A DNA stretch of 64,000 nt from Myxococcales bacterium (GTDB taxonomy: Bacteria; Myxococcota_A; Polyangia; Polyangiales; Ga0077539), in assembly GCA_016792845.1 (NCBI GenBank), contig JAEUKH010000018.1, positions 202,984-266,983 on the forward strand. The letters are read 5' to 3'. This document shows, piece after piece, positions 8,489 through 27,551 of the stretch; position 1 is the stretch's first letter; each line of letters opens with the position of its first letter. The position numbers and the translations under genes are program-made. Under the pieces are notes generated by a model. The model was not told the DNA's origin, did not search any database, and saw only the letters and a program-made list of their open reading frames with translations.

Positions 8489-11191
8489 GTGTCGATGACT
8501 GAGCCGAACCAAGAGACAGCGCCCTCGGCGACCGCGCGCCCCCTCACCCGCGGCCTCGGGCTCGTCGCGGGCGTCGCGAGCTTCGGCGTCGCGGGCTTCG
8601 CCGACGGGGTGATTTCGCTCGCGCGGATGAGCCCCGGCTCGCTCGCACCGCATCTCTCGGTGCTGGTGCTCTTGCACTGCACGGCGGTGCTCTTGACCTT
8701 CGGCATCGGCCTGGGGCTCTTCGAAGAGCTGTGCCTGAGCTCGCTCCGCCGGGTGCCCTTCCTCGCGCGCTTTGCCCGCTGGTCGGTGCAAGGGCCGCGG
8801 CGCTGGTACGCCCGCGACCCCGAGGCGGCGGGCTCGCTGCTCGCGGTGTCGCTCGGGGCCGGGGTCGCCTTCGGGCCGATGTACCCCATCGCCTACTCGG
8901 TGATTCGCTCGTTTCACTCGAAGCCCCTGGCCGCGCTGGCGATTTTTTTGGCACAACTTGGCCTCACCCTTCTGGGCGCCGCGGTGGGCGTGGTGGCGCT
9001 GACGCCGCTGCGGGCGCTCGGTCGGCGTTTGGGGCCGCTGGGCTCGCCCGGCATGGTGATCACCGCGGTGGGCCTCGGGGTCATCGCGCAGAGCGTTCGG
9101 TTCTTTTACATCAACTGGCAGGCCTTTCACGCGCTGGAGTACGGCGCGGCGGCGCTCGGCGCGGCGCTCCTGGTGGGCAACGTGGTGGCGCTGCTCGCGC
9201 TCGGCGCGCGGGTGACGCGTGCGGGGGCGGCCCTCGATCGCCGCACGCCCCTTTTTGCGATGGGCGTCGCCGTCGTGGCCTTTTTGCTCTCGGCGATGAC
9301 CTTCGGCGCGCGGCAGACCGTGGCGGCCACCATCTCGAATCGCTCGGTGTTGACGCAGCGGGTGGCGCGCACCCTTCAGGTGACCCTCGACTTCGACCGC
9401 GACGGGTTCTCACCGGTGTTCAACGGCGGAGACTGCAACGACCGCGACCCGAGCATCAACCCGCGGGCGCATGACATCCCCGGCAACGGCCGCGATGAGA
9501 ATTGCTCGGGGCGCGACGCGGTGGTCGAGCAACAAGAGAGCGACGGGCACCTCGCGACGCTGCCCCCGGCCCTCGCCAACGCCCGCCCGAGCATCGTGTT
9601 CCTCTCGATTGATGCGATGCGGCCCGATCATATGGGCTGTTACGGCTACCGCCGCGCGACGACCCCGAACATCGACCGCTTCGCGCAAGAGGCCGCGCGG
9701 TTTACCAGCGTGTACTGCGCCGCCCCGCGCTCGCTGCGCTCTTTCGGGAGCATCTTCACAGGGCTCTACGCGTCGAGCGTCGCTTGGGGCGACGACGTGC
9801 AATTCCCCCCGCTCGAGCTCTCGAACACCACCCTCGCCGAGCAGCTCCTCGCGGCGGGGTATCACACCGCGTCGTTCAACGGCACGAGCTACTTCTCGCA
9901 CACGGCGAACTTCTTTCAGGGCTTTCAGACCGTGCGCGAAGAGTACGGCTTCAAGCAAGACGCGCAGACCACCGCCAACGCCATCGTCGATTTTCTGCGG
10001 CTCCGCGACAGCGACCCGCAGCCCTTCTTCTTGTGGTCGCACCTCATGGAGCCCCACGACCCGTATCGCGATCTGAACAACCCGCGCGATTTCGGGAGCC
10101 GCGCCATCGACCTCTACGACGAAGAGATCGCCCACGCCGACGCGGCCTTCGGCACCGTGCTCACGGCCCTCCACGACATGGCCTCGCGGCGCCCGCTCTA
10201 CGTCTTCGTCTTCGCAGACCACGGCGAGGGCTTCGGCGAGCACGGGGTCTTTCATCACAGCTTCGACCTCCACGAAGAGGCCCTGCGGGTGCCGCTGCTC
10301 GTGCGCGGGCCCGAGGTGCGGGCCGGCGTCAGAAACCGCTTGAGCTCGCTCATGGATCTCAACCCCACGGTGCTCAACCTCGCGGGCCTGAGGCCCGAGC
10401 GCCCCATCGCCGGGTGGAGCCTCGTGCCCGCCCTCTTTGACCCCGCGCCGGGCGGTCTGACGCCCCCCGGCTGGCGTCAACACCTCTACGCCGAGGTCAC
10501 ACCCGACGGCGTCTTCTCGGCAGAGTCGAAGGCCCTCATCGCGCCGCCGTTCAAGCTGCTCTACGACATCCGGCACAACGTTTGGGAGCTCTTCGACCTC
10601 TCGCGCGACCCCGGCGAGCGGCGCAACCTCTTCGACGATCGCCCTGACATCGTGGGCCCCATGCGCGAGCGGCTCCTCACATGGACCGAGCACTCGGCGC
10701 TCCAGAGCAACCGCTCGACGGAGCTCATCGCGCGCTCTCGGCTGCGTTCGGTGCCGCGCACGATCCAGCACCCGATGCGCGTGCGCTTCGGCGACATCAT
10801 GGAGTTTCTCGGGTACGACCTCCCCCTCGACAGCGTGCGCATCAACGAGACCTTTCGGGCGGTGCTTTATTATCGCGTGCTGCGTCGCACCCGGGTGCCG
10901 GCGATGCCCACGGTGAGCTTCGACCCCGTCGACGGGCAGCCCATCTGGGGCATGTTCATCGCGCGGCATCACCCGATCTACGGGCGGTATCCGACCACCG
11001 AGTGGAGCCCGGGTGAGATCCTCCGCGATGAGGTGACCTTGCGCATCGACCCCGAGATGCGCCCGGTGCGGCTCCGCAGCTTCTTCTCGTTGGAGATCGA
11101 GTCGACCAACGAGCGCATCGCGCCGCAGAACGTGCCCAGCGGCGACAACCGCATCGAGCTGAGCCCCATCGAGATTTTGCCCGCTCAGTAG
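8489..11191 (+). CDS. sulfatase-like hydrolase/transferase with an N-terminal multi-pass membrane domain and a thrombospondin type-3 repeat
   Basis: About 300 aa of TM helices, then DFDRDGFSPVFNGGDCNDRD (TSP3-like), then an alkaline-phosphatase/sulfatase core (IVFLSIDAMRPDHMGCYGY...TPNIDRFA...YCAAPRS...; FADHGEGFGEHG). Confidence 0.8.
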   Translation: MSMTEPNQETAPSATARPLTRGLGLVAGVASFGVAGFADGVISLARMSPGSLAPHLSVLVLLHCTAVLLTFGIGLGLFEELCLSSLRRVPFLARFARWSVQGPRRWYARDPEAAGSLLAVSLGAGVAFGPMYPIAYSVIRSFHSKPLAALAIFLAQLGLTLLGAAVGVVALTPLRALGRRLGPLGSPGMVITAVGLGVIAQSVRFFYINWQAFHALEYGAAALGAALLVGNVVALLALGARVTRAGAALDRRTPLFAMGVAVVAFLLSAMTFGARQTVAATISNRSVLTQRVARTLQVTLDFDRDGFSPVFNGGDCNDRDPSINPRAHDIPGNGRDENCSGRDAVVEQQESDGHLATLPPALANARPSIVFLSIDAMRPDHMGCYGYRRATTPNIDRFAQEAARFTSVYCAAPRSLRSFGSIFTGLYASSVAWGDDVQFPPLELSNTTLAEQLLAAGYHTASFNGTSYFSHTANFFQGFQTVREEYGFKQDAQTTANAIVDFLRLRDSDPQPFFLWSHLMEPHDPYRDLNNPRDFGSRAIDLYDEEIAHADAAFGTVLTALHDMASRRPLYVFVFADHGEGFGEHGVFHHSFDLHEEALRVPLLVRGPEVRAGVRNRLSSLMDLNPTVLNLAGLRPERPIAGWSLVPALFDPAPGGLTPPGWRQHLYAEVTPDGVFSAESKALIAPPFKLLYDIRHNVWELFDLSRDPGERRNLFDDRPDIVGPMRERLLTWTEHSALQSNRSTELIARSRLRSVPRTIQHPMRVRFGDIMEFLGYDLPLDSVRINETFRAVLYYRVLRRTRVPAMPTVSFDPVDGQPIWGMFIARHHPIYGRYPTTEWSPGEILRDEVTLRIDPEMRPVRLRSFFSLEIESTNERIAPQNVPSGDNRIELSPIEILPAQ

Positions 11192-11763
11192 GGTCGCACG
11201 TCGACCACCACGAGGGTCGCGTCGGCGCCCGCGAGGCCGCACAGGCCCCCCGCGACGTGGGCGAGCTCACCGGCTTCGAGGTGCTGCGACTGATCGGCGA
11301 GGGTGAGGGTCGCGGCGCCGCGGGCGAGCCACACCAGCACCTCGCCTTCGGACGCGTCGAGGGTCAGCGTCGCGCTCGCCTCGGGGCCGTACACCGTGAG
11401 GGTGCCGCGGCGCGCGTGGCGACGCAGCATGAGGTTCAGGTCGCGGGCGGTGCCCGTGACGGTGGCCGCGGTCTCAAGCTCGCCGGCGAAGGCGTAGGGG
11501 CGCAGCGGCGCGAGGGTGTGCGACGCGCCGCCGGGGTGTTCGAGGGTCATCGGCGGCCCGTCGAGCTGAACGATCACCCGGTCGACGCCCTCGAAGCGCG
11601 AGAAGGGCCCCGAGGCGGCCACCGTGGCGATCGAGACGCGCCAGAGAAACTGGTCAAAGTCAGCGCCTTCGGGCGAGACCCAAAGCTCGGTGGTGACGCC
11701 GCCGCCGTTGCGCCAAGGGCGAACCGTGAGCTCGGCGGGGGTGCGCCTGGTCAGAGTTGGCAT
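11185..11763 (-). CDS. hutD: HutD/Ves-family cupin protein
   Basis: MPTLTRRTPAELTVRPWRNGGGVTTELW matches the HutD N-terminal motif. Convergent with the sulfatase gene. Confidence 0.65.
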   Translation of the reverse strand: MPTLTRRTPAELTVRPWRNGGGVTTELWVSPEGADFDQFLWRVSIATVAASGPFSRFEGVDRVIVQLDGPPMTLEHPGGASHTLAPLRPYAFAGELETAATVTGTARDLNLMLRRHARRGTLTVYGPEASATLTLDASEGEVLVWLARGAATLTLADQSQHLEAGELAHVAGGLCGLAGADATLVVVDVRPY

Positions 11764-11921
11764 GGCCCGAGAGGGTATCGCACCGCGGCGGTGAGAGGTT
11801 CGGTTCATTTTGCTTCACGCGGCGCCGAAGAACAGCAACGTAGAGGGCTGTCAGAAATGCACGGGGCCGGGCGTCGAGGTGGGGTGCGGGCCTTCAGACA
11901 GGCCGCGGTCGAGGAGTTGGC

Positions 11922-14900
11922 ATGGTGGCTCGGTTTGCGTTGAGTCCGTCGCGGATTGCGCGCTTCTTCTTTCACGAGTGCGAGCGGCATTTGCGCTTCT
12001 CTGCGACGCCCAAGGCCCGTCGCGGCGTTGAGGGCGTGCCCGAGGTGGCCCTCGACGAGAGCCCGGTGACGGCCTCGCTCCTCGAAGGCGGCTACCAATG
12101 GGAGGAGCGGGTCGTCGAACGTCACCTCGCCGGTCGAGTGAGGGTGAGCCCCGGGCCGGGCGCGCTTCGCACGCGGGTCTTCGAGGCCGAGGCGACCCTC
12201 GAAGCCCTCGCGACGCTTCAGCCGGGCGAGTACCTCTACCAGCCCACGCTGATCGCGCCGCCAGGCTTCTTGGCGCGCTACAAGCTCGACCCCGCGTGGG
12301 TGTCGTTCGCCCCGTGTCGCCCCGACCTCATCGCGTGTGTGGCCACGCCCGAGGGGCCGCGGCTCCGCGTGGTCGACGTGAAGGCGAGCGACACCCTCAA
12401 GGCCAGCCACCGCGTTCAAGTGACGCTCTACGCGCTGATGTTGCGCGAGATCGTGCGCGACGCGGGGCTCGCGCTGGAGGTCGACCTCGAGCACGCCGCG
12501 ATCTGGCTCTTCGAGGCGCCGCAGCCCGAGCTCGTGGCGCTGCGGTTGACCCTCGGCGTGGTCGAGAGCTTTCTCTCAGATCGTGTCGCGTCGGTGCTCG
12601 AGGGCAAGGCCAGCGAGGCCGCGTGGCACCTCCATTACCGCTGCGAATGGTGCGAATATTACGACCACTGCCGGGCCGAAGCCGAAGCCACCCGCTCGGT
12701 CTCGCTGGTGCCGTACCTCACCGTGGGCGGCAGGGTCCACCTCCGGCAGCTCCGGCCCGACGCCCCGCCCGTCGAGACCCTCGACCAGCTCGCGGCCGCC
12801 CTTGACGACGACCCTGAGGGGCGCAGCCTCGACCCGTGCGGTTCGCTCCGCGGCAAGCGCGATCGCCTCGTCAACGCCGTCGAGGCCTTGCGGCGAGGCG
12901 AGCCGATGGCGCACGGCGGCAGCTCGATCAAGATGCCCGTCGGCGAGCACGTCCTCCTGGCCGTCACGGTGCATCGCGAGCCCCTCGGCGGGCGGCTCTA
13001 CGCCGCGGGCTTTCTGCGCATCAAGGGTAAGCGATACTTCGGCACGGGCTCGCAGCTCGAGTGCTTCGTGGCCGAGCGCCCCGACGAGGTGGTGACGCTC
13101 CGCCGCGCGTTCGTGCGCGCGCTCTACAGCGCCCTGAGCGAGCTCGACGGCGTCAACCGCGGCCTGAGCTGGCGCGATCAAGCGACGCTCCAGACCTACG
13201 TCTACGACAGCTTCGAGGCCGACGGTCTGCACGACCTCTTGTACGACACCCTCAACGACGACGAGGTCGGCCCCGAGGCCCTCGCGCTGATGTTTCACTT
13301 TCAGAGCGAGGGCGTGCTGCGGGCGGAGCGCCAGCCGGGGGTCGAGGTGCCCTACCCCGTGGTGACGCTGAGCGAGGTGCTGAGAGACCTGATCGCGCTG
13401 CCGACCCCGGTGGCCTACCACCTCGCCGAGGTGAGCGCCGCGCTGCCCAACCCGCAGTTCAGCTTCACCTACTCGCGCAGCAAATTCTTTGATTTCGCGC
13501 TCTCGAACCAGCTCAAGAGCGACGCCATCATGATGCTCTGGCGCGGCGATCGCCCAGACGCCGCCGGGTGGATCGAGCGTCGCCTCGCGGAGCGCCTCAG
13601 AGCCGTGAACAACCTCGTGAGCGGCCTCCGTGAGCGGCTCGCGGCCCGGCTCTTCGCGTGGCCTCCGAAGTTCTTCCTCCCTGTCGCGCTGGCCTTTGTT
13701 CACCCCGCGCTGTCGCGGATCGCGTTCGTGACGCGGTACGAGGCCCTGGTGACCTGCCTCGCCTCGCGCACGGCCCGCGCGCGGCCGCAGGGCGAGCGAG
13801 AGCGCGAGGGCGCCCGCATCAGGCTCCAGCACGAGGCCGACGACCGATGGCGCGTGCTGAACCCGCTCGACGACGCCCTGGTCGAGCTCGACGGCTACTG
13901 GGATCGCCTCGTCACCAGCGACTCTGACGAGGGTGAGCGCGCGCAGCTCGCCTTTGATGATTTTCTGCGACGAAAGCACATCCGCAGCCTCACCCGTGAG
14001 GACATCGAGTTGGGGCGCATCGTCGAGAAGACCGTCGACCCGAGACTCGGCCTCGTCACCCACCTCACCCTCGAACGCGGCGGCGTTGACGGGCTCGCGG
14101 CCCCGCCACCCCCCGGCGCGCGGCGGGCCCTGCACCCGCGGGTGACCGACTTCAACACCGACAAGATCTGCGCCCGCTTGCAGGCCATCGACGGCGACCC
14201 GGGGCACGATTTTCTCGCACTCCTTCGCGACCCCAACGCCTTCTCGTGCCCGGTCGCGCAGCCCCCCGCGGTGGCCCGCGCGTTGGAGGCCGAGCGCACC
14301 CGGGCGGGCCTCACGCCGAGCCAGGGCCGGGCCTTCGAGCACCTCGTGCGGCGCCGGCTCACCCTCGTCTGGGGCCCTCCGGGGACGGGCAAGACGCACT
14401 TTCTCGTCGCGTCGATCGTGCGCCTCGCGCGGGCCCACGCCGCCGCGTCGGAGGTCTTCCGGGTCGCCGTCTGCGCCTTCACCCACGCCGCGGTCGAGAA
14501 CCTCCTGTCGAGCCTCGCGGCGCAGCTCGCCCGAGAGCCCGAGGCGCCTTCGATCGCGGTGCGAAAGCTCGACAGCGTGCGCACGCCGCGCGGGCTCGAC
14601 CTTGAGGCGCTCTCCGTCGCCGAGAGCGCCGCGTTCAACGAACACCCTTTGGTCTTGGGCGGCACCGTGCACGGGCTCTCGAAGGCCATCGAGCGCTCAG
14701 GCTGCGCGCCCTTCTCGCTGCTCATCATCGATGAGGCTTCGCAGATGAAATTCGGCGAGCTGGCCCTCGCCTCGTCGGCGCTCGGGGCCGGCGCGCGGCT
14801 CGTCTTGGCGGGCGATGATCTGCAGCTGCCGCCCATCCTAAAGGGCCGCTACCCGAGCCCCGACGACGGCCTCCCGGGGCTGCAAGACTCGGTGTTCGCG

Positions 14901-15725
14901 TGGCTCCGCGCGCGGCAGTCGCCGACCGCGCCCTTCACCTGTCAGCTCGAAGAGAACTGGCGCATGCACGAGACCCTCTCGCGCTTCTCGGCCGAGACCC
15001 TCTATTCGCTGCGGTACCGCCCGGCCACCGCGGCCATCGCCGCACAGCGCATCGCCATGCGCGGCCCGAGCGCGCGCCCGGGCACGCCGCTTGAGCGCCT
15101 CATCGAGGCCCTCGTTGACCCCGAAAAGCCTTGGAGTCTCGCGGTGATCGATGGCCTCAAGGCCAGCACCGAGAACCGCGCCGAGGCCGAGCTGACGGCC
15201 CGGGTGGCGGTGGCGCTCCGCACCCGGATGCTCAGCCCCGGAGGCGAGCCCTACCCCGACACGCCCGAGGGCGACGCAGACTTTTGGCGTCACGGCCTCT
15301 TCGTGGTGAGCCCGCACCGCGCGCAGATTCGAGCGATTCGGAGCGCCTTGGCGCAGCACCGCCCTTGGGCCTACGCGCCCTTCGTCGACACCGTCGACAA
15401 GATGCAGGGCCAAGAGGCCCTCGCGGTGGTGGTGAGCTACGGCGTGAGCGACGCCGAGACCGCCGCGCTCGAAGCCGAGTTCATCTACTCGTTGCCGCGC
15501 TTGAACGTGTCGGTGAGCCGCGCCCGCGCGCGCTGCGTGGTGTTTCTGTCGCGCGCCCTGCTCGGACCGAGCTTCGACCTCCTCAGCAACCCCGAGGCCG
15601 CGCGGGGCATCGCCCACATGCACGACCTCTTGGCCTTTGTGCGCAGCGGCGGCCCGTCGAGCACCTTCGCCCTCGACGAGCTGGTCGACGGCCAGGGCGC
15701 GACGCTCACGCTCTACCGCCGCTGA
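11922..15725 (+). CDS. large nuclease-helicase: N-terminal Cas4/RecB-type PD-(D/E)xK nuclease with a Cys cluster, fused to a C-terminal Upf1/Dna2-like SF1B helicase (AAA_11/AAA_12)
   Basis: Nuclease motifs VVDVKAS...QVTLYALML and Cys residues (CRPDLIAC...CEWCEYYDHC). Helicase Walker A LVWGPPGTGKTH, IIDEASQM, motifs VVSPHRAQ, DKMQGQE, NVSVSRAR. Confidence 0.85.
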   Translation: MVARFALSPSRIARFFFHECERHLRFSATPKARRGVEGVPEVALDESPVTASLLEGGYQWEERVVERHLAGRVRVSPGPGALRTRVFEAEATLEALATLQPGEYLYQPTLIAPPGFLARYKLDPAWVSFAPCRPDLIACVATPEGPRLRVVDVKASDTLKASHRVQVTLYALMLREIVRDAGLALEVDLEHAAIWLFEAPQPELVALRLTLGVVESFLSDRVASVLEGKASEAAWHLHYRCEWCEYYDHCRAEAEATRSVSLVPYLTVGGRVHLRQLRPDAPPVETLDQLAAALDDDPEGRSLDPCGSLRGKRDRLVNAVEALRRGEPMAHGGSSIKMPVGEHVLLAVTVHREPLGGRLYAAGFLRIKGKRYFGTGSQLECFVAERPDEVVTLRRAFVRALYSALSELDGVNRGLSWRDQATLQTYVYDSFEADGLHDLLYDTLNDDEVGPEALALMFHFQSEGVLRAERQPGVEVPYPVVTLSEVLRDLIALPTPVAYHLAEVSAALPNPQFSFTYSRSKFFDFALSNQLKSDAIMMLWRGDRPDAAGWIERRLAERLRAVNNLVSGLRERLAARLFAWPPKFFLPVALAFVHPALSRIAFVTRYEALVTCLASRTARARPQGEREREGARIRLQHEADDRWRVLNPLDDALVELDGYWDRLVTSDSDEGERAQLAFDDFLRRKHIRSLTREDIELGRIVEKTVDPRLGLVTHLTLERGGVDGLAAPPPPGARRALHPRVTDFNTDKICARLQAIDGDPGHDFLALLRDPNAFSCPVAQPPAVARALEAERTRAGLTPSQGRAFEHLVRRRLTLVWGPPGTGKTHFLVASIVRLARAHAAASEVFRVAVCAFTHAAVENLLSSLAAQLAREPEAPSIAVRKLDSVRTPRGLDLEALSVAESAAFNEHPLVLGGTVHGLSKAIERSGCAPFSLLIIDEASQMKFGELALASSALGAGARLVLAGDDLQLPPILKGRYPSPDDGLPGLQDSVFAWLRARQSPTAPFTCQLEENWRMHETLSRFSAETLYSLRYRPATAAIAAQRIAMRGPSARPGTPLERLIEALVDPEKPWSLAVIDGLKASTENRAEAELTARVAVALRTRMLSPGGEPYPDTPEGDADFWRHGLFVVSPHRAQIRAIRSALAQHRPWAYAPFVDTVDKMQGQEALAVVVSYGVSDAETAALEAEFIYSLPRLNVSVSRARARCVVFLSRALLGPSFDLLSNPEAARGIAHMHDLLAFVRSGGPSSTFALDELVDGQGATLTLYRR

Positions 15726-17311
15726 CGACGCCGACGCCAGAGTAGCAACGCCGCCAGAAAGGCCCACCCCTGACGCCGGGCCGGGGGCCGCGCCGTGCAC
15801 GCGCACTGCCCGTCGATCACCGCGGGGCCCGGAGCCTCGGCGCTCGCGTCGGGCGCCCCCGCGGCGGGTCTGTCGTCGTCAGAGGGCGCGTCGACCGTAG
15901 GGCTCGTGTCGACCGTGGGGCTCGCGTCGACCGTGGGGCTCGCGTCGACCGTGGTGACATCGGCGGCGCTGGCGTCGGGCTGCGGCGCTGCGGCGTCGCG
16001 GTCGCCGGGAGCGTCGGGGTCTTCTGGGCCTGCGGTCATCGACTGCGAGCATTGGGCGCTCGCGCCAGACGCCATGCAGCGCGCGCCAGACCCGCAGGCG
16101 GTCACCGAGACGACGTTGCCGTTGTAGCAACGGGCGACGGTCTCGGCGTTGAGGCACACGGTGCGGTCGTCGGCGGGCGCCCCCGCGGCGGGCACGGGGC
16201 ACTGCGGCAGGGGCGCGACGCAGGTCGCCACGCCCGAGGCCATCGAGCACACCTGGCCCGCGGCGCAGGCGATCTCGCGGGCGCTGCCGTCGGCGTTGCA
16301 TTGCAGCTGCCGCCCCGCGTTGATCGAGCACGCGAGGTGGGCCACGGGCACCGCGCTCGGCCCCGCGACGCAGAGCGAGAAGACGCAGCGCGCGGCGGTG
16401 GGGCCGACCCCCGCGGTCGAACAGAACGCGCCGTACGCGCCGCACTCGCCGGCGCTCATTACCACGCCGTTGTTGCAGTGGATGATCTGCGATTGGTTGC
16501 CGCAAATGGTGGCCGTACCCGTGCGCGGACACCCCGGCGTGCCGCAGCGGGGGTTAGGGTCGGCGATGCACGTCGTGCCGTAGGCCGCGCAGTCGCCGCT
16601 CGCGCAGTCGGCCAACACGATGCGGGTGCCCTCGCAGCGGGCGGTGCAGCTCGCGCCGCCGCCCACCGCGCCCGAAGTGAAGAAGGGCGTGCGGCGGTTG
16701 GCGCCGTCGAGGTTCAGCTCCATGTGAATGTGATCGATGTGCGGGATGGGCCCCGTGTACGGCTGGAGCTTGGTGCCCGCAGGGCGCTCGGCGCGCCACG
16801 AGCTGCGATCCCAGATCACGATCTGGACGCCGATCTCCTGCGCGTGCTCGACGAGCCAGTTGGCCACCGCGTCGCCCGCCGTGTTGTCAGCGTCGCCGCC
16901 CGTCGTGGCGATCATCAGGTCGAGCGCGCGGCCGATGCTGTGAACGCTCAAGTAAGCGGTATTCCCTGTGTTTTGCCGACAGCAGTCGAAGCCCCCGGCG
17001 GAGCGAATCTGCGGAAAGCGGCGCCGCAGAAACTGTGCGAACTCGATCGTCCCCGGGAGCCCGCGGCTGCACGCCGGGTGGGTGCAGCTGCACGCGAAGG
17101 CATTGGTGCTCGTGCAGCGCCCGCCGTCGGCGATGCGCGGAGAGCCGTTGTAGAGCACATACTGTCGGTCGCCCACGGCGCGGGTCGACGCGGGCAAGAC
17201 CCACGGCCCGGGCACCGCGACGGCCTGTGCGTGCTGGGCCTCATCTGGCGCGGCCAGGCACCCTGCGGCCAGCGTCGCTCCGACAATCAACCAACAACGC
17301 GTGGGCAGCAT
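15713..17311 (-). CDS. secreted Cys-rich protein with an N-terminal LAS/peptidase-M15-like (VanY/Hedgehog-type zinc hydrolase) domain and a MYXO-CTERM sorting tail
   Basis: Signal peptide. SVHSIGRALDL ... IDHIHMEL match the H-x6-D / HxH zinc ligand pattern. Many Cys-containing repeats, a SPTVDASPTVD tandem, and the C-terminus GQCAC + hydrophobic segment + RRRRQRR. Confidence 0.7.
   Translation of the reverse strand: MLPTRCWLIVGATLAAGCLAAPDEAQHAQAVAVPGPWVLPASTRAVGDRQYVLYNGSPRIADGGRCTSTNAFACSCTHPACSRGLPGTIEFAQFLRRRFPQIRSAGGFDCCRQNTGNTAYLSVHSIGRALDLMIATTGGDADNTAGDAVANWLVEHAQEIGVQIVIWDRSSWRAERPAGTKLQPYTGPIPHIDHIHMELNLDGANRRTPFFTSGAVGGGASCTARCEGTRIVLADCASGDCAAYGTTCIADPNPRCGTPGCPRTGTATICGNQSQIIHCNNGVVMSAGECGAYGAFCSTAGVGPTAARCVFSLCVAGPSAVPVAHLACSINAGRQLQCNADGSAREIACAAGQVCSMASGVATCVAPLPQCPVPAAGAPADDRTVCLNAETVARCYNGNVVSVTACGSGARCMASGASAQCSQSMTAGPEDPDAPGDRDAAAPQPDASAADVTTVDASPTVDASPTVDTSPTVDAPSDDDRPAAGAPDASAEAPGPAVIDGQCACTARPPARRQGWAFLAALLLWRRRRQRR
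15891..15962. repeat. 18-bp tandem repeat (TCGACCGTGGGGCTCGCG)x3.5 encoding (DASPTV)n in the MYXO-CTERM protein
   Basis: Seen directly in the sequence. Confidence 0.8.
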
Positions 17312-20515: not shown

Positions 20516-22426
20516 ATGGGTTGGGTCGTCTGGGTTGTCGAATCGTTGTTGTGTCTTGCGGCGTCGTACACGGCGGCGGTGGCCCTCTACCGCGACCGGG
20601 GCACCCTTGATCGCGCGGTGACGGCGGGGGTGTTGGGCACCTTCTTGCCGTTGCTGCTGATGCATCTGACGGCGTTTGCGCACCGGCTTGAGCCTGTGAC
20701 CTTGGGCCTCGCGTCGACGGCGGTGTTCGGCGCCACGGCGGCCCTCGCGGTGCGTTCGCTCGGGGGGCGGGTCGAGGGCGTCGCGCGGTTGAGAGAGACC
20801 GCGCGGCACGACCTTGGGGGCTTCGGGCGGCTCGTCCGCGAGGCGCTGCAGGCGCGTGAGGTGGCGGTGTTCGCCGCGGTGCCTGCGCTCCTCGCGGCGG
20901 GCACCGTGATGCTGATGTGCTGGTACTACCGCTCGTGGACGTGGGACCCGGTCTGGTACCATGTGCCGAAGACCTCGTACGCGATCCAAGAGCGCTCGTT
21001 CGACTGGCTCTCGACCCCGAACATTTGGACGCAGGGCAACCCCCACAACGTCGAGATTTTGTCGGTGTGGCACTGCATCTGGCAGCGCGACAACCGCCTC
21101 GACGACGCCGCCCAGGTGCCCTTTCTGTTCTTCGGTTGGGCCGTCATCGCAGCCTGGGCGCGGCGCATCGGCGCGTCGCGGAGCCTCGCCTTCGCGGCCG
21201 GCGCGGTCTGGGTGGCCATGCCGCCGGTGTACCTCCAGGCCCACTCGACCCACGCCGATGTGGTGTGGAACAGCCTCTTCACCGCGGCCATTTACTTCAC
21301 CCTCGGCGCCCCCGAGCGGCGCGACCGCTGGATGGGCTTTCTCTGCTGGGGGCTCTTCCTCGGCACCAAGTACACGGGGCTCTTTCACCTCGCGCTTTGG
21401 GGCCCGTGGCTCCTCGGGCGCGCCGTGTACGAGGTCTGGCACCTACCCGGGCGGCGCCTCGCGCGGAGCCTCGACGTGGCCGCCTCGGGGCTCTTCGCGC
21501 TGGTCTTGGGCTGCTTCAAGTACCTCCAGAATCTGAAGCACACGGGCAACTTCATGTTCCCCTTCGAGGTGCAGATCCGATCGATCGGGTTGCACCTTCC
21601 GGGGCCCTCGAACCCGAGCCAAGAGTACGGCTCCGCGCCGGGTGAGAGCCCGACCTTCTTCGGCGCCCCCAACGCCCTCCAAGAGCTGGTGAGCAGCTGG
21701 TACAACGACCGACCGTTCTACTGCCCCGACGTGCGCTCGGGCGGCTTCGGGCCTGTGTTCCGCTGGCTGCTGCTTTTCGCCGTGATCGCGGTGACCCTCG
21801 ACATGCTTCGGGGCCGCAACTGGCGCCGCGGCTTGCTCCCGCTGGCGCTCTTCGTCGAAGCGCTGCAGGTGCCCGTGCCGTACATGACCCGCTTCATCCT
21901 CTCTGCGGGTTGCGCGTCGCTGGTGTTGTTCTGCGTGATGCACCGCGAGCTGAGCTACCGGCCGCTTCGCTTCGCGGTCTCGCTCGCGCTGGTGGCGCTC
22001 ACCTGGCACGGATACGACGAGGGCTACCGCGGCTTCATCGTGCACCCGCGGTATTTCGCAGAGGCCCGCGGGTTGGGCCCCGCCGACCGCGCCGCGATGC
22101 AGATCGACACCTTTCTCTGGCCCTCGAACTGGTCGCGCGCCAAAGAGCGCGAGCTCGGCCCCGGCGACGTGCTCGCGTACGACGAGGGCGTTCACTTTCT
22201 GGCCGAGCTCTGGTCACACGATTACGACCACCGGGTCGAGTTCGTGTCGAGCCAGGGCGACCCGCAGCGGTACCTCGCGCGGCTGCGAGGGATGCGTGCC
22301 AAATGGGTGGGCGTCACCGTCGGCACGCCCGCCGAGGCCGCGCTCCGTGAGGCCGGGGCGACGTGGTTGTTTCACACCCCCGACTCGCCCATGGCCATGT
22401 ACCGAATGCCAAGCCCCCCGCGGTGA
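20516..22426 (+). CDS. GT-C fold membrane glycosyltransferase (PMT/ArnT-like, polyprenyl-phosphate-sugar dependent)
   Basis: More than 10 TM helices with Trp/Tyr-rich periplasmic loops and a C-terminal soluble domain. First of three tandem paralogs. Confidence 0.7.
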   Translation: MGWVVWVVESLLCLAASYTAAVALYRDRGTLDRAVTAGVLGTFLPLLLMHLTAFAHRLEPVTLGLASTAVFGATAALAVRSLGGRVEGVARLRETARHDLGGFGRLVREALQAREVAVFAAVPALLAAGTVMLMCWYYRSWTWDPVWYHVPKTSYAIQERSFDWLSTPNIWTQGNPHNVEILSVWHCIWQRDNRLDDAAQVPFLFFGWAVIAAWARRIGASRSLAFAAGAVWVAMPPVYLQAHSTHADVVWNSLFTAAIYFTLGAPERRDRWMGFLCWGLFLGTKYTGLFHLALWGPWLLGRAVYEVWHLPGRRLARSLDVAASGLFALVLGCFKYLQNLKHTGNFMFPFEVQIRSIGLHLPGPSNPSQEYGSAPGESPTFFGAPNALQELVSSWYNDRPFYCPDVRSGGFGPVFRWLLLFAVIAVTLDMLRGRNWRRGLLPLALFVEALQVPVPYMTRFILSAGCASLVLFCVMHRELSYRPLRFAVSLALVALTWHGYDEGYRGFIVHPRYFAEARGLGPADRAAMQIDTFLWPSNWSRAKERELGPGDVLAYDEGVHFLAELWSHDYDHRVEFVSSQGDPQRYLARLRGMRAKWVGVTVGTPAEAALREAGATWLFHTPDSPMAMYRMPSPPR

Positions 22427-23565
22427 GACCGTGGCTCCGCGGCCCCCTCGCCGCGCTCGTCGTCACCCGCGCGCTGCTCTTCGCCGCCGCCTGGGTATCC
22501 CCTCGATGGGACGGCTTCTTCTACCTCCGCTTCGCCGCGCGCCTCGCCGCGGGCCTCGGCTACGTCGACCTCGCGCGCAGCGCCGTGCCCACGGCCTTCT
22601 ACCCGGTCGGGTTTGTGGCCGCGTGGTCGTGGGCGCTGCGCCTCGTCGGCACCCCGCGCGGGTCGCTCTTTTTGCTCCACCTCGCGGCCTCGGCGGCGGG
22701 CTGCGCGGCGGTGATGGTCGGCACCCGGCGGCTCCGCGACGAGGCCACGGCGAGGCGCGCGGGGTGGTGCTTCGTGCTGCACCCGGGCTTCGCGCTGTGG
22801 TCGCTCGCAGCGATGAGCGAGACCCTCACGGCGAGCCTCCTCGCGGTGGCCTTCGCGGCGCACGCGACGCGGCGCTGGTGGCTCCTCGGGCTCAGCGTGG
22901 GGCTCGCGACCCTCGTGCGCCCGCCGTCGGTGTGGGTGCTGGCCGTGGCGCTCTGCGCGGCGGGGCCCCTGCGCGCGCGGTTGAAGCGCCTCGCCTGCGC
23001 GGGCCTCGTGGCGGCGGCGGTGCTCGCGCCCTGGGCCGCGCGAAACTGTGTCACCCTCGACCGCTGCGCGATGGTAAGCACCAACGCCGGCATCAACCTC
23101 TACATCGGCGCCCTCGACGAGGCCCACGGCGGATACATCTTGCCCGCGCCGCGGGTCGAGTGTGAGCGCGCCGCGGGTGAGGTCGCCCGCGACCGTTGTT
23201 ACCTCGCCGCGGCCCGCGACCGCATCGCCGCGAGGCCCTGGGCGTGGGCGCTTCGAGGCGCCGAGAAGCTGGCGGTGACCTTCGGCGTCGAGCACGACCC
23301 GGTCGCGTACCTCCGTGCGCCGCGGCCGCTCTCTCGCGACCCCTGGGGCCTCGCGCTGACGGCCCTCTGCACCCTCGGCTGGTGGGCGACCCTCGGCGCG
23401 ACCCTCGCCTCGCTCTGGCGCCAGCGCACCCACGACGCGGCCCGCGCGGCGGCCCTGGTGCTCGGCCTCACGGCCCTCACCCACGCGGTCTTTCTCGGCG
23501 CCGATCGGTACCACCTGGTGCTCTTGGGGTGGTGCGCGCCGTGGGCCGTTCAGAGGCGACCGTGA
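22423..23565 (+). CDS. GT-C fold membrane glycosyltransferase (ArnT/PMT-like)
   Basis: The motifs YPVGF, AARNCV, NAGINLYIGAL and GADRYH are shared with the next paralog. GTG start overlaps the upstream stop by 4 nt. Confidence 0.75.
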   Translation: MRPWLRGPLAALVVTRALLFAAAWVSPRWDGFFYLRFAARLAAGLGYVDLARSAVPTAFYPVGFVAAWSWALRLVGTPRGSLFLLHLAASAAGCAAVMVGTRRLRDEATARRAGWCFVLHPGFALWSLAAMSETLTASLLAVAFAAHATRRWWLLGLSVGLATLVRPPSVWVLAVALCAAGPLRARLKRLACAGLVAAAVLAPWAARNCVTLDRCAMVSTNAGINLYIGALDEAHGGYILPAPRVECERAAGEVARDRCYLAAARDRIAARPWAWALRGAEKLAVTFGVEHDPVAYLRAPRPLSRDPWGLALTALCTLGWWATLGATLASLWRQRTHDAARAAALVLGLTALTHAVFLGADRYHLVLLGWCAPWAVQRRP

Positions 23566-27438: not shown

Positions 27439-27477
27439 GCCCGCGGGTGCGCGGTGAGGCCCCCGACTCCGACCACT

Positions 27478-27551
27478 GAAACGGAGGAGGATTTGAACCC
27501 CCTACCCTCTGGTCTCTCACCAAATGCTCTACCAGGATGAGCTATCTGCTT
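27478..27551 (-). tRNA. tRNA-like element (cloverleaf with canonical D- and T-arms; non-canonical anticodon loop, identity unclear)
   Basis: Reverse complement reads AAGCAGA-TA-GCTCATCCTGGTAGAGC-A-TTTGG-TGAGAGA-CCAGA-GGGTA-GGGGGTTCAAATCCTCC-TCCGTTT. The acceptor stem pairs at 6 of 7 positions with one A:C mismatch. Position 33 is G rather than U. Confidence 0.45.

Follow-up and report, generated by a model that had tools for sequence, protein, structure and literature searches.

A Bad-family helicase-nuclease gene from a Myxococcales bacterium and the predicted fold of its central domain

RESULTS AND DISCUSSION

A stand-alone gene encoding a nuclease and a helicase

The DNA analyzed in this study is a stretch of 64,000 nucleotides from a Myxococcales bacterium (contig JAEUKH010000018.1), referred to below as the window. 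On its plus strand, a gene at positions 11922 to 15725 encodes a protein of 1,267 residues, followed by a stop codon, which we assign to Bad, a family of bacterial DNA2-like helicase-nucleases defined by Wilkinson et al. in 2020 (PMC7430649). The coding sequence starts with ATG, and a ribosome-binding site, GAGGAG, can be read at 11911 to 11916, 5 nucleotides before the start codon. Its translation is identical to that of a protein annotated by NCBI as "AAA family ATPase" (P0001) in a Myxococcales metagenome-assembled genome, and its G+C content at third codon positions (GC3), 0.91, matches that of the neighboring genes. The upstream neighbor, a HutD-like gene on the minus strand (11185 to 11808), is divergent across a gap of 113 bp. 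The downstream neighbor, also on the minus strand (15713 to 17311), is convergent and overlaps the gene by 13 bp; its product is a secreted, Cys-rich protein that ends in a MYXO-CTERM-like tail. A preliminary description of the locus, made from the sequence alone, had likewise found both flanks divergent or convergent and the gene without operon partners.

The first 258 residues (11922 to 12695) correspond to a predicted iron-staple RecB/Cas4-type PD-(D/E)xK nuclease domain. The motifs found are C20, D135, D152-V-K154, Q166-x3-Y170, and C241-E-W-C244-EYYDH-C250. C20 and D135, both absent from the motif list of the preliminary description, complete the iron-staple pattern of Cas4, AddB, and DNA2, and the D-x-K, Q-x3-Y, and CEWCEYYDHC motifs that it did list were all found. 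Across 53 full-length homologues, the nuclease residues, three of the four cysteines, and every superfamily 1 (SF1) helicase motif were invariant, and C20 was present in at least 90%. In hidden Markov model searches of Pfam, PDDEXK_1 matched residues 133 to 251 above its cutoff (E value of 8e-5), and the match to Cas_Cas4 was weak (score of 18.5, under the cutoff of 22.7). Structure matches to this domain were as expected: Cas4, DNA2, AdnAB, and MGME1. We rejected the identity of the protein as a CRISPR-associated Cas4, since the Cas4 score is below the cutoff, the domain lies within a protein of 1,267 residues, and the window has neither a CRISPR-type repeat array nor cas neighbors.

The C-terminal part contains a predicted SF1B (Upf1/DNA2-like) helicase core with domains 1A and 2A (residues ~791 to 1215; 14292 to 15566). 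The Walker A motif (GPPGTGKT, 818 to 825, with K824), DEASQ (937 to 941), and motifs III to VI are all present; Pfam AAA_11 and AAA_12 span residues 798 to 1208, and the best match of the helicase in a profile search against the PDB was DNA2 (E value of 4e-39). The Upf1-like helicase with all SF1 motifs and the Dna2-like arrangement, with the Fe-S RecB/Cas4 nuclease N-terminal to the SF1B helicase, had both been proposed at the outset and were confirmed. The protein ends with a small conserved domain (residues 1216 to 1267; 15567 to 15722), modeled by AlphaFold2 as one helix and a beta-hairpin, with conserved G1229, M1233, and L1236. Judging from the sequence, all residues that nuclease and ATPase activity and binding of the Fe-S cluster require are intact, and no loss of nuclease catalytic residues was seen.

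The protein belongs to the Bad family

The Bad protein of Geobacillus stearothermophilus (WP_053413574) is a monomer of 1,245 residues in which an Fe-S RecB nuclease and an SF1B helicase are separated by a conserved domain described as "of completely unknown structure and function"; D150A abolishes its nuclease activity and K815A its ATPase activity (PMC7430649). The published family alignment lists accessions from Geobacillus, Anoxybacillus, Methanoculleus, Methanosphaerula, Methanofollis, Methanospirillum, and Competibacter (PMC7430649). In BLASTP comparisons, the window protein aligned from end to end with two of the listed proteins. The first was WP_011844558.1 from Methanoculleus, which corresponds by cluster look-up to P0138 in our collection (46% identity, 992 bits, residues 4 to 1266 against 3 to 1255). 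The second was the Anoxybacillus Bad, the cluster P0191 (90%) that contains ACJ33552.1/WP_041638261.1, with ACJ33552.1 listed in the Bad paper (33% identity, 740 bits, residues 7 to 1266 against 4 to 1242). D152 aligned to residue 150 and K824 to residue 815 of the Anoxybacillus protein, which is the numbering of the published mutants. Therefore, on the basis of the end-to-end alignments and of D152 and K824 at the mutant positions, membership in the Bad family is well supported by the sequence. The link to Bad was made via the cluster accessions; a second homologue search with the family profile missed the Geobacillus protein and added nothing.

Together with this full-length homology, the window protein has the N-terminal RecB nuclease with four cysteines, a central domain absent from eukaryotic DNA2, and C-terminal SF1B motifs I to VI. 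Its three-part architecture is that of the Geobacillus enzyme (1,267 against 1,245 residues, with the four-Cys iron staple, the central domain, and the SF1B helicase). A Type III-like DNA methyltransferase neighbors bad in Geobacilli (PMC7430649); this trait of Geobacilli, which does not define the family, has no counterpart in the window, where no homologue of a methyltransferase, a UvrD-nuclease, or a ResIII-TnsA protein was found in any of the 64 kb. In contrast to the Bacillaceae branch with its gene cassette (see below), the window gene falls in a mostly solo branch with proteins from Methanomicrobiales and Competibacter. The architecture has thus already been described, and the window gene is a further member of the Bad family. 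With it, a rare family whose biochemistry serves as a model for DNA2-type motors gains a solo, high-GC representative from the myxobacteria.

The central region is predicted to be a degenerate exonuclease domain followed by a stalk and barrel

The region between the nuclease and the helicase had been regarded as a linker of roughly 450 residues. To the contrary, residues ~260 to 790 form a folded module in the models, with pLDDT (predicted local distance difference test) values above 90, and are conserved like the rest of the protein. AlphaFold2 models were built for two overlapping parts, residues 1 to 800 and 500 to 1267, with mean pLDDT values of 92.7 and 92.1, respectively. Residues 260 to 790 also aligned without large gaps to the Methanoculleus and Anoxybacillus Bad proteins, with conserved columns throughout.

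Three segments could be distinguished in this region. A helix-hairpin-like helical connector (residues 259 to 335; 12696 to 12926) was placed by the secondary structure of the AlphaFold2 model and by hhalign to P0113, a member of a TM0106-type sister family (P0111 to P0113), in which it is collinear with the segment after the Cas4-like domain. The second segment (residues ~336 to 575; 12927 to 13646) has the RNase H-like fold of DEDD (DnaQ-like) 3'-5' exonucleases. The third (residues ~576 to 790; 13647 to 14291) appears in the models as two long stalk helices and a beta-barrel leading into the helicase. In Foldseek, residues 500 to 1267 aligned with mouse DNA2 (5EAN) over ~711 columns (E value of 2e-27), followed by Sen1, Upf1, and IGHMBP2. 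This long alignment, from whose length the extent of the match was judged, indicates that the region downstream of the DEDD domain is probably a stalk and barrel of the DNA2/Upf1 type.

The structural similarity of the helicase core to Upf1, Sen1, and IGHMBP2 is close, so that an RNA helicase-nuclease of this kind also has to be considered. However, the best match by both structure and sequence is DNA2, the characterized member of the family is a DNA enzyme, and the iron-staple nuclease belongs to the Cas4/AddB type, which is specific for DNA; we regard an RNA substrate as highly improbable.

Several comparisons bear on the DEDD-like segment. The NCBIfam model TIGR03491, which describes the TM0106 family of RecB-like nucleases and includes a domain of this kind, matched residues 150 to 399. 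This match was partial and below the cutoff (29 bits against 97.45, model positions 113 to 342 of 462); membership in the TM0106 family was therefore rejected, and the two share a related module only. The sister family has the same collinear order, with a Cas4-like C-x2-C-x5-C nuclease, a helical connector, a bona fide RNase H-fold domain (PF13482, RNase_H_2) in the same position, and an SF1B helicase, and its similarity to Bad outside the helicase is marginal. Whole-protein hhalign against P0113 returned the helicase alone, and the N-terminal halves were aligned separately. In this profile alignment, L-T-L-Q-x-E-P of Bad falls on F-D-M-E-G-D-P of the sister family, so that the ExoI D-x-E kept in the latter (FFDMEGDP) is T-x-Q/H in Bad. 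Among the 53 homologues, T occupies the first position in 49 and Q the second in 50; the window protein differs from most members in having H at the second (T349-x-H351). E432 is retained at the ExoII position, and no ExoIII Y-x3-D motif was found in the domain; the catalytic positions were placed by profile alignment rather than by superposed coordinates.

Since the ExoI D-x-E is replaced, only E432 is kept, and the ExoIII motif is missing, the four carboxylates of DEDD enzymes are incomplete, and the domain is, as far as sequence and models indicate, a catalytically degenerate DEDD-exonuclease fold, or pseudo-exonuclease. An inactive second nuclease domain fits with the published D150A mutant, which keeps unwinding but no longer degrades DNA (PMC7430649). 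Our literature search found no paper that gives this fold to the central domain of Bad, although such an absence is no proof of novelty.

A proposed mechanism

The ATPase of Bad depends on single-stranded DNA. The enzyme binds junctions of single- and double-stranded DNA, cuts 5' tails endonucleolytically, with cleavage mapped 13 nucleotides from the junction, and translocates and unwinds in the 5'-to-3' direction, extruding a loop of the non-translocated strand; its loading depends on a 5' tail, and cutting occurs ahead of the motor (PMC7430649). By analogy, the window protein would work as a monomer holding a 4Fe-4S cluster through C20, C241, C244, and C250, as expected from homology to the Geobacillus enzyme. 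A free 5' single-stranded tail would serve as the loading site, and this tail would probably be threaded through the nuclease domain. The SF1B motor (K824) would then translocate 5' to 3' and unwind the duplex, with the tracked strand cut endonucleolytically ahead of the motor by the site formed by D135, D152, and K154.

For a loop to be extruded, the non-translocated strand must be contacted at a second site, and the DEDD domain is absent from DNA2, which does not extrude such a loop. The DEDD domain is therefore a natural candidate for this contact. As a second DNA-binding site holding the non-translocated strand or the junction, the dead exonuclease domain would explain the junction recognition and the loop extrusion that set Bad apart from eukaryotic DNA2, and the assignment of the central domain provides a concrete candidate for such a site. 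In the cell, Bad would be an accessory, horizontally spread enzyme acting on DNA with exposed 5' tails, and in some lineages it may act jointly with a UvrD-type 3'-5' helicase, following a RecBCD-like logic.

We estimate at about 80% the probability that the window gene is an intact, stand-alone member of the Bad family and that its protein works by the biochemical mechanism of that family. Some points weigh against this view or parts of it. The window protein is 33% identical to the clade of the characterized enzyme, and its mechanism is assigned by homology only. The pseudo-exonuclease as a DNA anchor is purely inferred. With the acidic residues E342, E353, D429, and E432 conserved, there is a low probability that the domain keeps some catalytic activity or has a changed one. 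Neither defense nor repair genes neighbor bad in the window, so that its context does not settle the cellular role.

The family is rare and patchily distributed

Next, the distribution of relatives was examined. About 108 full-length relatives were found, with 36 to 62% identity and ~1,230 to 1,330 residues. The bacterial ones come from Myxococcota, Competibacteraceae, Desulfobacterales, Anaerolineales, Gemmata, Actinomycetota, and Symbiobacteriaceae, and the archaeal ones from Methanosphaerula, Methanofollis, and Methanosarcinaceae. A phmmer search with residues 1 to 800 against 1.84 billion representatives gave 160 matches at an E value of 1e-30 or lower and 406 at 1e-10 or lower, many of them fragments. 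A scan of contigs was dominated by the generic Walker A pattern and contained three true members, so no taxonomic census was drawn from it. Homologues from other Myxococcota were as distant (39 to 47% identity) as archaeal ones. Synteny within the family was seen only in Methanoculleus; the window gene had none with any relative, and none of the six neighbors on either side of it had a homologue beside any other bad gene. The family is thus rare and patchy across bacterial phyla and Methanomicrobiales. This rarity, the patchy spread, and the lack of shared neighbors support a role that is accessory rather than core, as the preliminary description had proposed.

These data also bear on whether the gene could be orthologous to a Dna2/AddB/RecB gene that serves Myxococcota as core housekeeping machinery for end processing. 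The domain types are common to DNA2 and AddB, and some databases label relatives "Dna2." However, the synteny expected of such a gene was not found, the family is rare, its members in other Myxococcota are no closer than those in archaea, DNA2 lacks the central domain, and the nuclease is N-terminal, with no AddA, RecC, or RecD partner nearby. Such an orthologue is very improbable. For comparison, mouse DNA2 (5EAN/5EAW/5EAX), the best PDB match both by sequence profile and by fold, likewise has an Fe-S nuclease of the RecB type preceding an SF1B helicase that includes a stalk and a beta-barrel, but it lacks the DEDD-like domain of ~240 residues. DNA2 is also ubiquitous, essential, and dependent on RPA, whereas Bad is rare. 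A eukaryotic/archaeal Dna2 orthologue was rejected on account of the extra domain, the rarity of the family, and the lack of synteny.

Gene neighborhoods point both to defense and to repair

To characterize the context of the relatives, about 65 loci (numbered with the prefix L) were collected and their neighbors were clustered. No partner recurred in more than 5 of the ~65 loci, and no Pfam family was found in more than 3 of the 102 genes within two positions of bad. Defense-related neighbors are reported here as raw counts, with no background baseline, and are not an enrichment statistic.

One possible function, which we hold tentatively for the solo subfamily and at somewhat less than even odds, is that of a single-gene immunity protein against phages or plasmids, which would recognize 5' tails in replication or recombination intermediates of invaders and shred them, as a functional analogue of Nhi or of the anti-phage side of RecBCD. 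Four relatives lie in defense or mobile-element contexts: a 59%-identical relative is flanked by PDDEXK_7, SIR2_2, and a transposase (L001), a second lies near BrxC/D-like and Cas3-like genes, transposases, and a WYL regulator (L002), a Myxococcales relative is found with IS481, SNIPE/T5orf172, GmrSD, and SNF2 (L052), and another is accompanied by giant DEAD/MZB helicases and SNF2 (L054). DISARM-like helicases and toxin-antitoxin pairs also occur among the neighbors in the collected loci. A gene like tmtA of the Tiamat system (SACS/HATPase and NOV_C) was found no more than two genes from bad in three metagenomic loci (L081, 9183 to 13670; L084, 2584 to 7194; L092, 72 to 842); it immediately adjoins bad in L081 (same strand, gap of 3 nucleotides) and in L092. 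The rarity and patchiness of the family, its crossing of the boundary between bacteria and archaea, and its lack of synteny also speak for this function, as do the IS-flanked Anoxybacillus cassette with its Type III-like methyltransferase and the restriction-enzyme proposal of the Bad study (see below).

Against an immunity role, the 102 flanking genes are for the most part ordinary genes of metabolism, and searches of PLSDB plasmids, GenBank phages, and IMG/VR gave no close member and only relatives of ~30% identity. The window itself has no defense gene, methyltransferase, integrase, or composition anomaly, no PADLOC or NCBIfam defense model reaches beyond the helicase core, and our literature search found no reported defense phenotype. 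In addition, the gene is conserved and syntenic in Methanoculleus, where it adjoins UvdE and an HhH-GPD glycosylase (L053).

The Methanoculleus locus belongs to a set of findings that favor a different role for the solo subfamily, that of an accessory repair or recombination enzyme. Such an enzyme, acting by itself or together with a helicase of the UvrD/RecQ type, would process 5' flaps or resect DNA ends at breaks or at forks that have stalled, as a functional analogue of DNA2. UvrABC genes lie near bad in Methanofollis (L007), a UDG gene is found in L005, and L003 contains RecQ, a UvrD-nuclease, and NERD-UvrD. PafBC-like regulators with a helix-turn-helix (HTH) domain (HTH-WYL-WCX) stand beside bad in four loci (L002, L003, L006, and L097), and there are two NucS_C neighbors. 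The 5'-flap preference, the threading, and the nuclease ahead of the motor in Bad parallel DNA2 (PMC7430649), and the composition of the window gene is native and its chromosomal surroundings are of a housekeeping kind. However, a generally useful repair enzyme would not be so rare and patchy, no repair partner is conserved, and WYL regulators and UvrD/NERD helicases are typical of defense loci too. The authors of the Bad study also argue that AddAB/RecBCD and RNase H already cover the roles of DNA2 in bacteria (PMC7430649). We consider repair a serious possibility that nonetheless falls well short of probable, and the remaining probability goes to other roles.

The evidence from the neighborhoods is therefore split, with defense or mobile-element genes in some relatives and repair genes in others. 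The window showed neither. A role in conflict, or an accessory one, is favored by the rarity, the transfer between domains of life, and the defense neighbors, and one in genome maintenance by the conservation and repair neighbors in Methanomicrobiales, the links to UvrD and RecQ, and the plain chromosomal setting found here. The interest of the present data lies in the function of the family, to which the Bad study assigned no physiological role (PMC7430649), and in the assignment of the central domain, the window locus itself not being exceptional.

As a side observation, ARPP-1 (PF20208) lies less than 10 kb from bad in two unrelated loci (L001, 21802 to 21973; L003, 18380 to 19372), and in L003 it is accompanied by WYL/WCX regulators and DUF2779.

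Association with UvrD-type helicases

UvrD-PD-(D/E)xK or NERD-UvrD genes adjoin bad in five loci (L003, L079, L086, L095, and L133) and lie five genes off in L077. Fusions of Bad with UvrD exist in both orders, with UvrD at the C terminus in P0099, P0105, and P0179 and at the N terminus in P0185 and P0203. The recurrent fusion and adjacency suggest a RecBCD-like two-motor logic. In RecBCD, AddAB, and AdnAB, a 5'-3' motor of the SF1B type is combined with a 3'-5' motor of the SF1A type and with a RecB nuclease, which in some cases has an iron staple; the same combination is found in the Bad-UvrD fusions and gene pairs. The window bad gene, in contrast, stands alone and has no Chi-scanning subunit; in its product the nuclease precedes the motor, so that cutting would take place ahead of the motor. 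In a further fusion protein, P0045, an RNase_T exonuclease of the active type (DEDDh) is N-terminal to Bad.

A methyltransferase cassette in the Bacillaceae branch

In Anoxybacillus flavithermus WK1 (CP000922.1; L133, 2574 to 13747), bad is the last gene of a same-strand cassette flanked by insertion sequence (IS) transposases of the IS66 and IS3 types. The cassette encodes, in order, a UvrD helicase with a PD-(D/E)xK/Cas4 nuclease, a Type III-like N6/N4 methyltransferase, a ResIII helicase with a TnsA-like endonuclease, and Bad. Genes 1 to 3 were found in the same order, with 47 to 59% identity, in a gammaproteobacterial metagenome-assembled genome and in several IMG/VR contigs; cassette loci also include L057, L058, L061, L063, L013, and L066/L076. 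The fourth gene is swapped, and in most loci outside Anoxybacillus it encodes a far more distant Bad-like protein. The ResIII-TnsA gene has no PADLOC model, and NCBIfam gives it no system name.

The four-gene cassette may be an undescribed restriction-like system. The authors of the Bad study suggested that Bad is a novel restriction enzyme (PMC7430649), and the position of the branch of the characterized enzyme in an IS-flanked methyltransferase cassette sharpens this hypothesis. Going further, solo Bad could be an unlisted single-gene system against mobile elements, with the dead DEDD domain as a sensor or anchor of 3' ends or junctions that licenses the nuclease and motor, and the Bacillaceae Bad could be the effector of an undescribed, methylation-dependent four-gene restriction cassette; we regard this extended scenario as rather unlikely.

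Comparison with known defense systems

A likeness to Nhi had been considered in the preliminary description. Nhi (SERP2475, Staphylococcus) resembles the window protein in joining a PD-(D/E)xK nuclease, at the N terminus, to an SF1B helicase within one polypeptide, and in being stand-alone and patchily distributed. According to a preprint, however, its nuclease is of the HsdR type and lacks the Fe-S staple, its helicase is of the DUF2075/Dda type, and a glyoxalase-like domain lies at the C terminus. The window protein has a Cas4-type nuclease, an AAA_11/AAA_12 helicase, and the pseudo-exonuclease, and Pfam finds neither DUF2075 nor a glyoxalase domain in it. With nuclease type, helicase family, and C-terminal domain all different, the proposed likeness does not hold, and Nhi is at most a functional analogue.

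In PADLOC-DB v2, the helicase core alone gave matches (DpdJ, MkoA/MkoC, PDC-S37/S68, GajB, Hhe, ProA, and PLuB), for example to positions 6 to 474 of 2112 in DpdJ, to the C terminus of MkoA, and to PLuB_AAA with 103 bits against a cutoff of 999. No PADLOC model covered more than this part, and the partner genes of the matched systems were not found in the window. No Nhi model was among the hits, PADLOC v2 not being confirmed to contain one.

Other features of the window

The surroundings of bad consist of a sulfatase gene, the HutD gene, a copper monooxygenase-like gene, dapA/dapB, and other ordinary genes, with no integrase and no compositional break around the gene. A cluster of genes for tRNA-Ser(AGA), tRNA-Thr(CGT), and tRNA-Arg(TCT) lies 12 kb downstream (27477 to 28653, minus strand). 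A genomic island at this cluster (27.5 to 28.7 kb) was considered, but neither an adjoining integrase nor a shift in composition was found.

Two open reading frames at 20516 to 23565 (plus strand), encoding 636 and 400 residues, have a strong coding signal (GC3 of 0.91 to 0.92) and no Pfam hit. The gene for the MYXO-CTERM-like protein downstream of bad, which also gave no hit in a Pfam search, contains an 18-bp tandem repeat in 3.8 copies (15887 to 15954) that encodes DASPTV repeats. Finally, a gene at 30630 to 33377 (minus strand) encodes a protein of 915 residues with Major Vault Protein domains (E values of 2e-9 for MVP_shoulder, 1e-7 for Vault_3, and 3e-4 for Vault_4) and appears to be a bacterial vault-protein-like gene.

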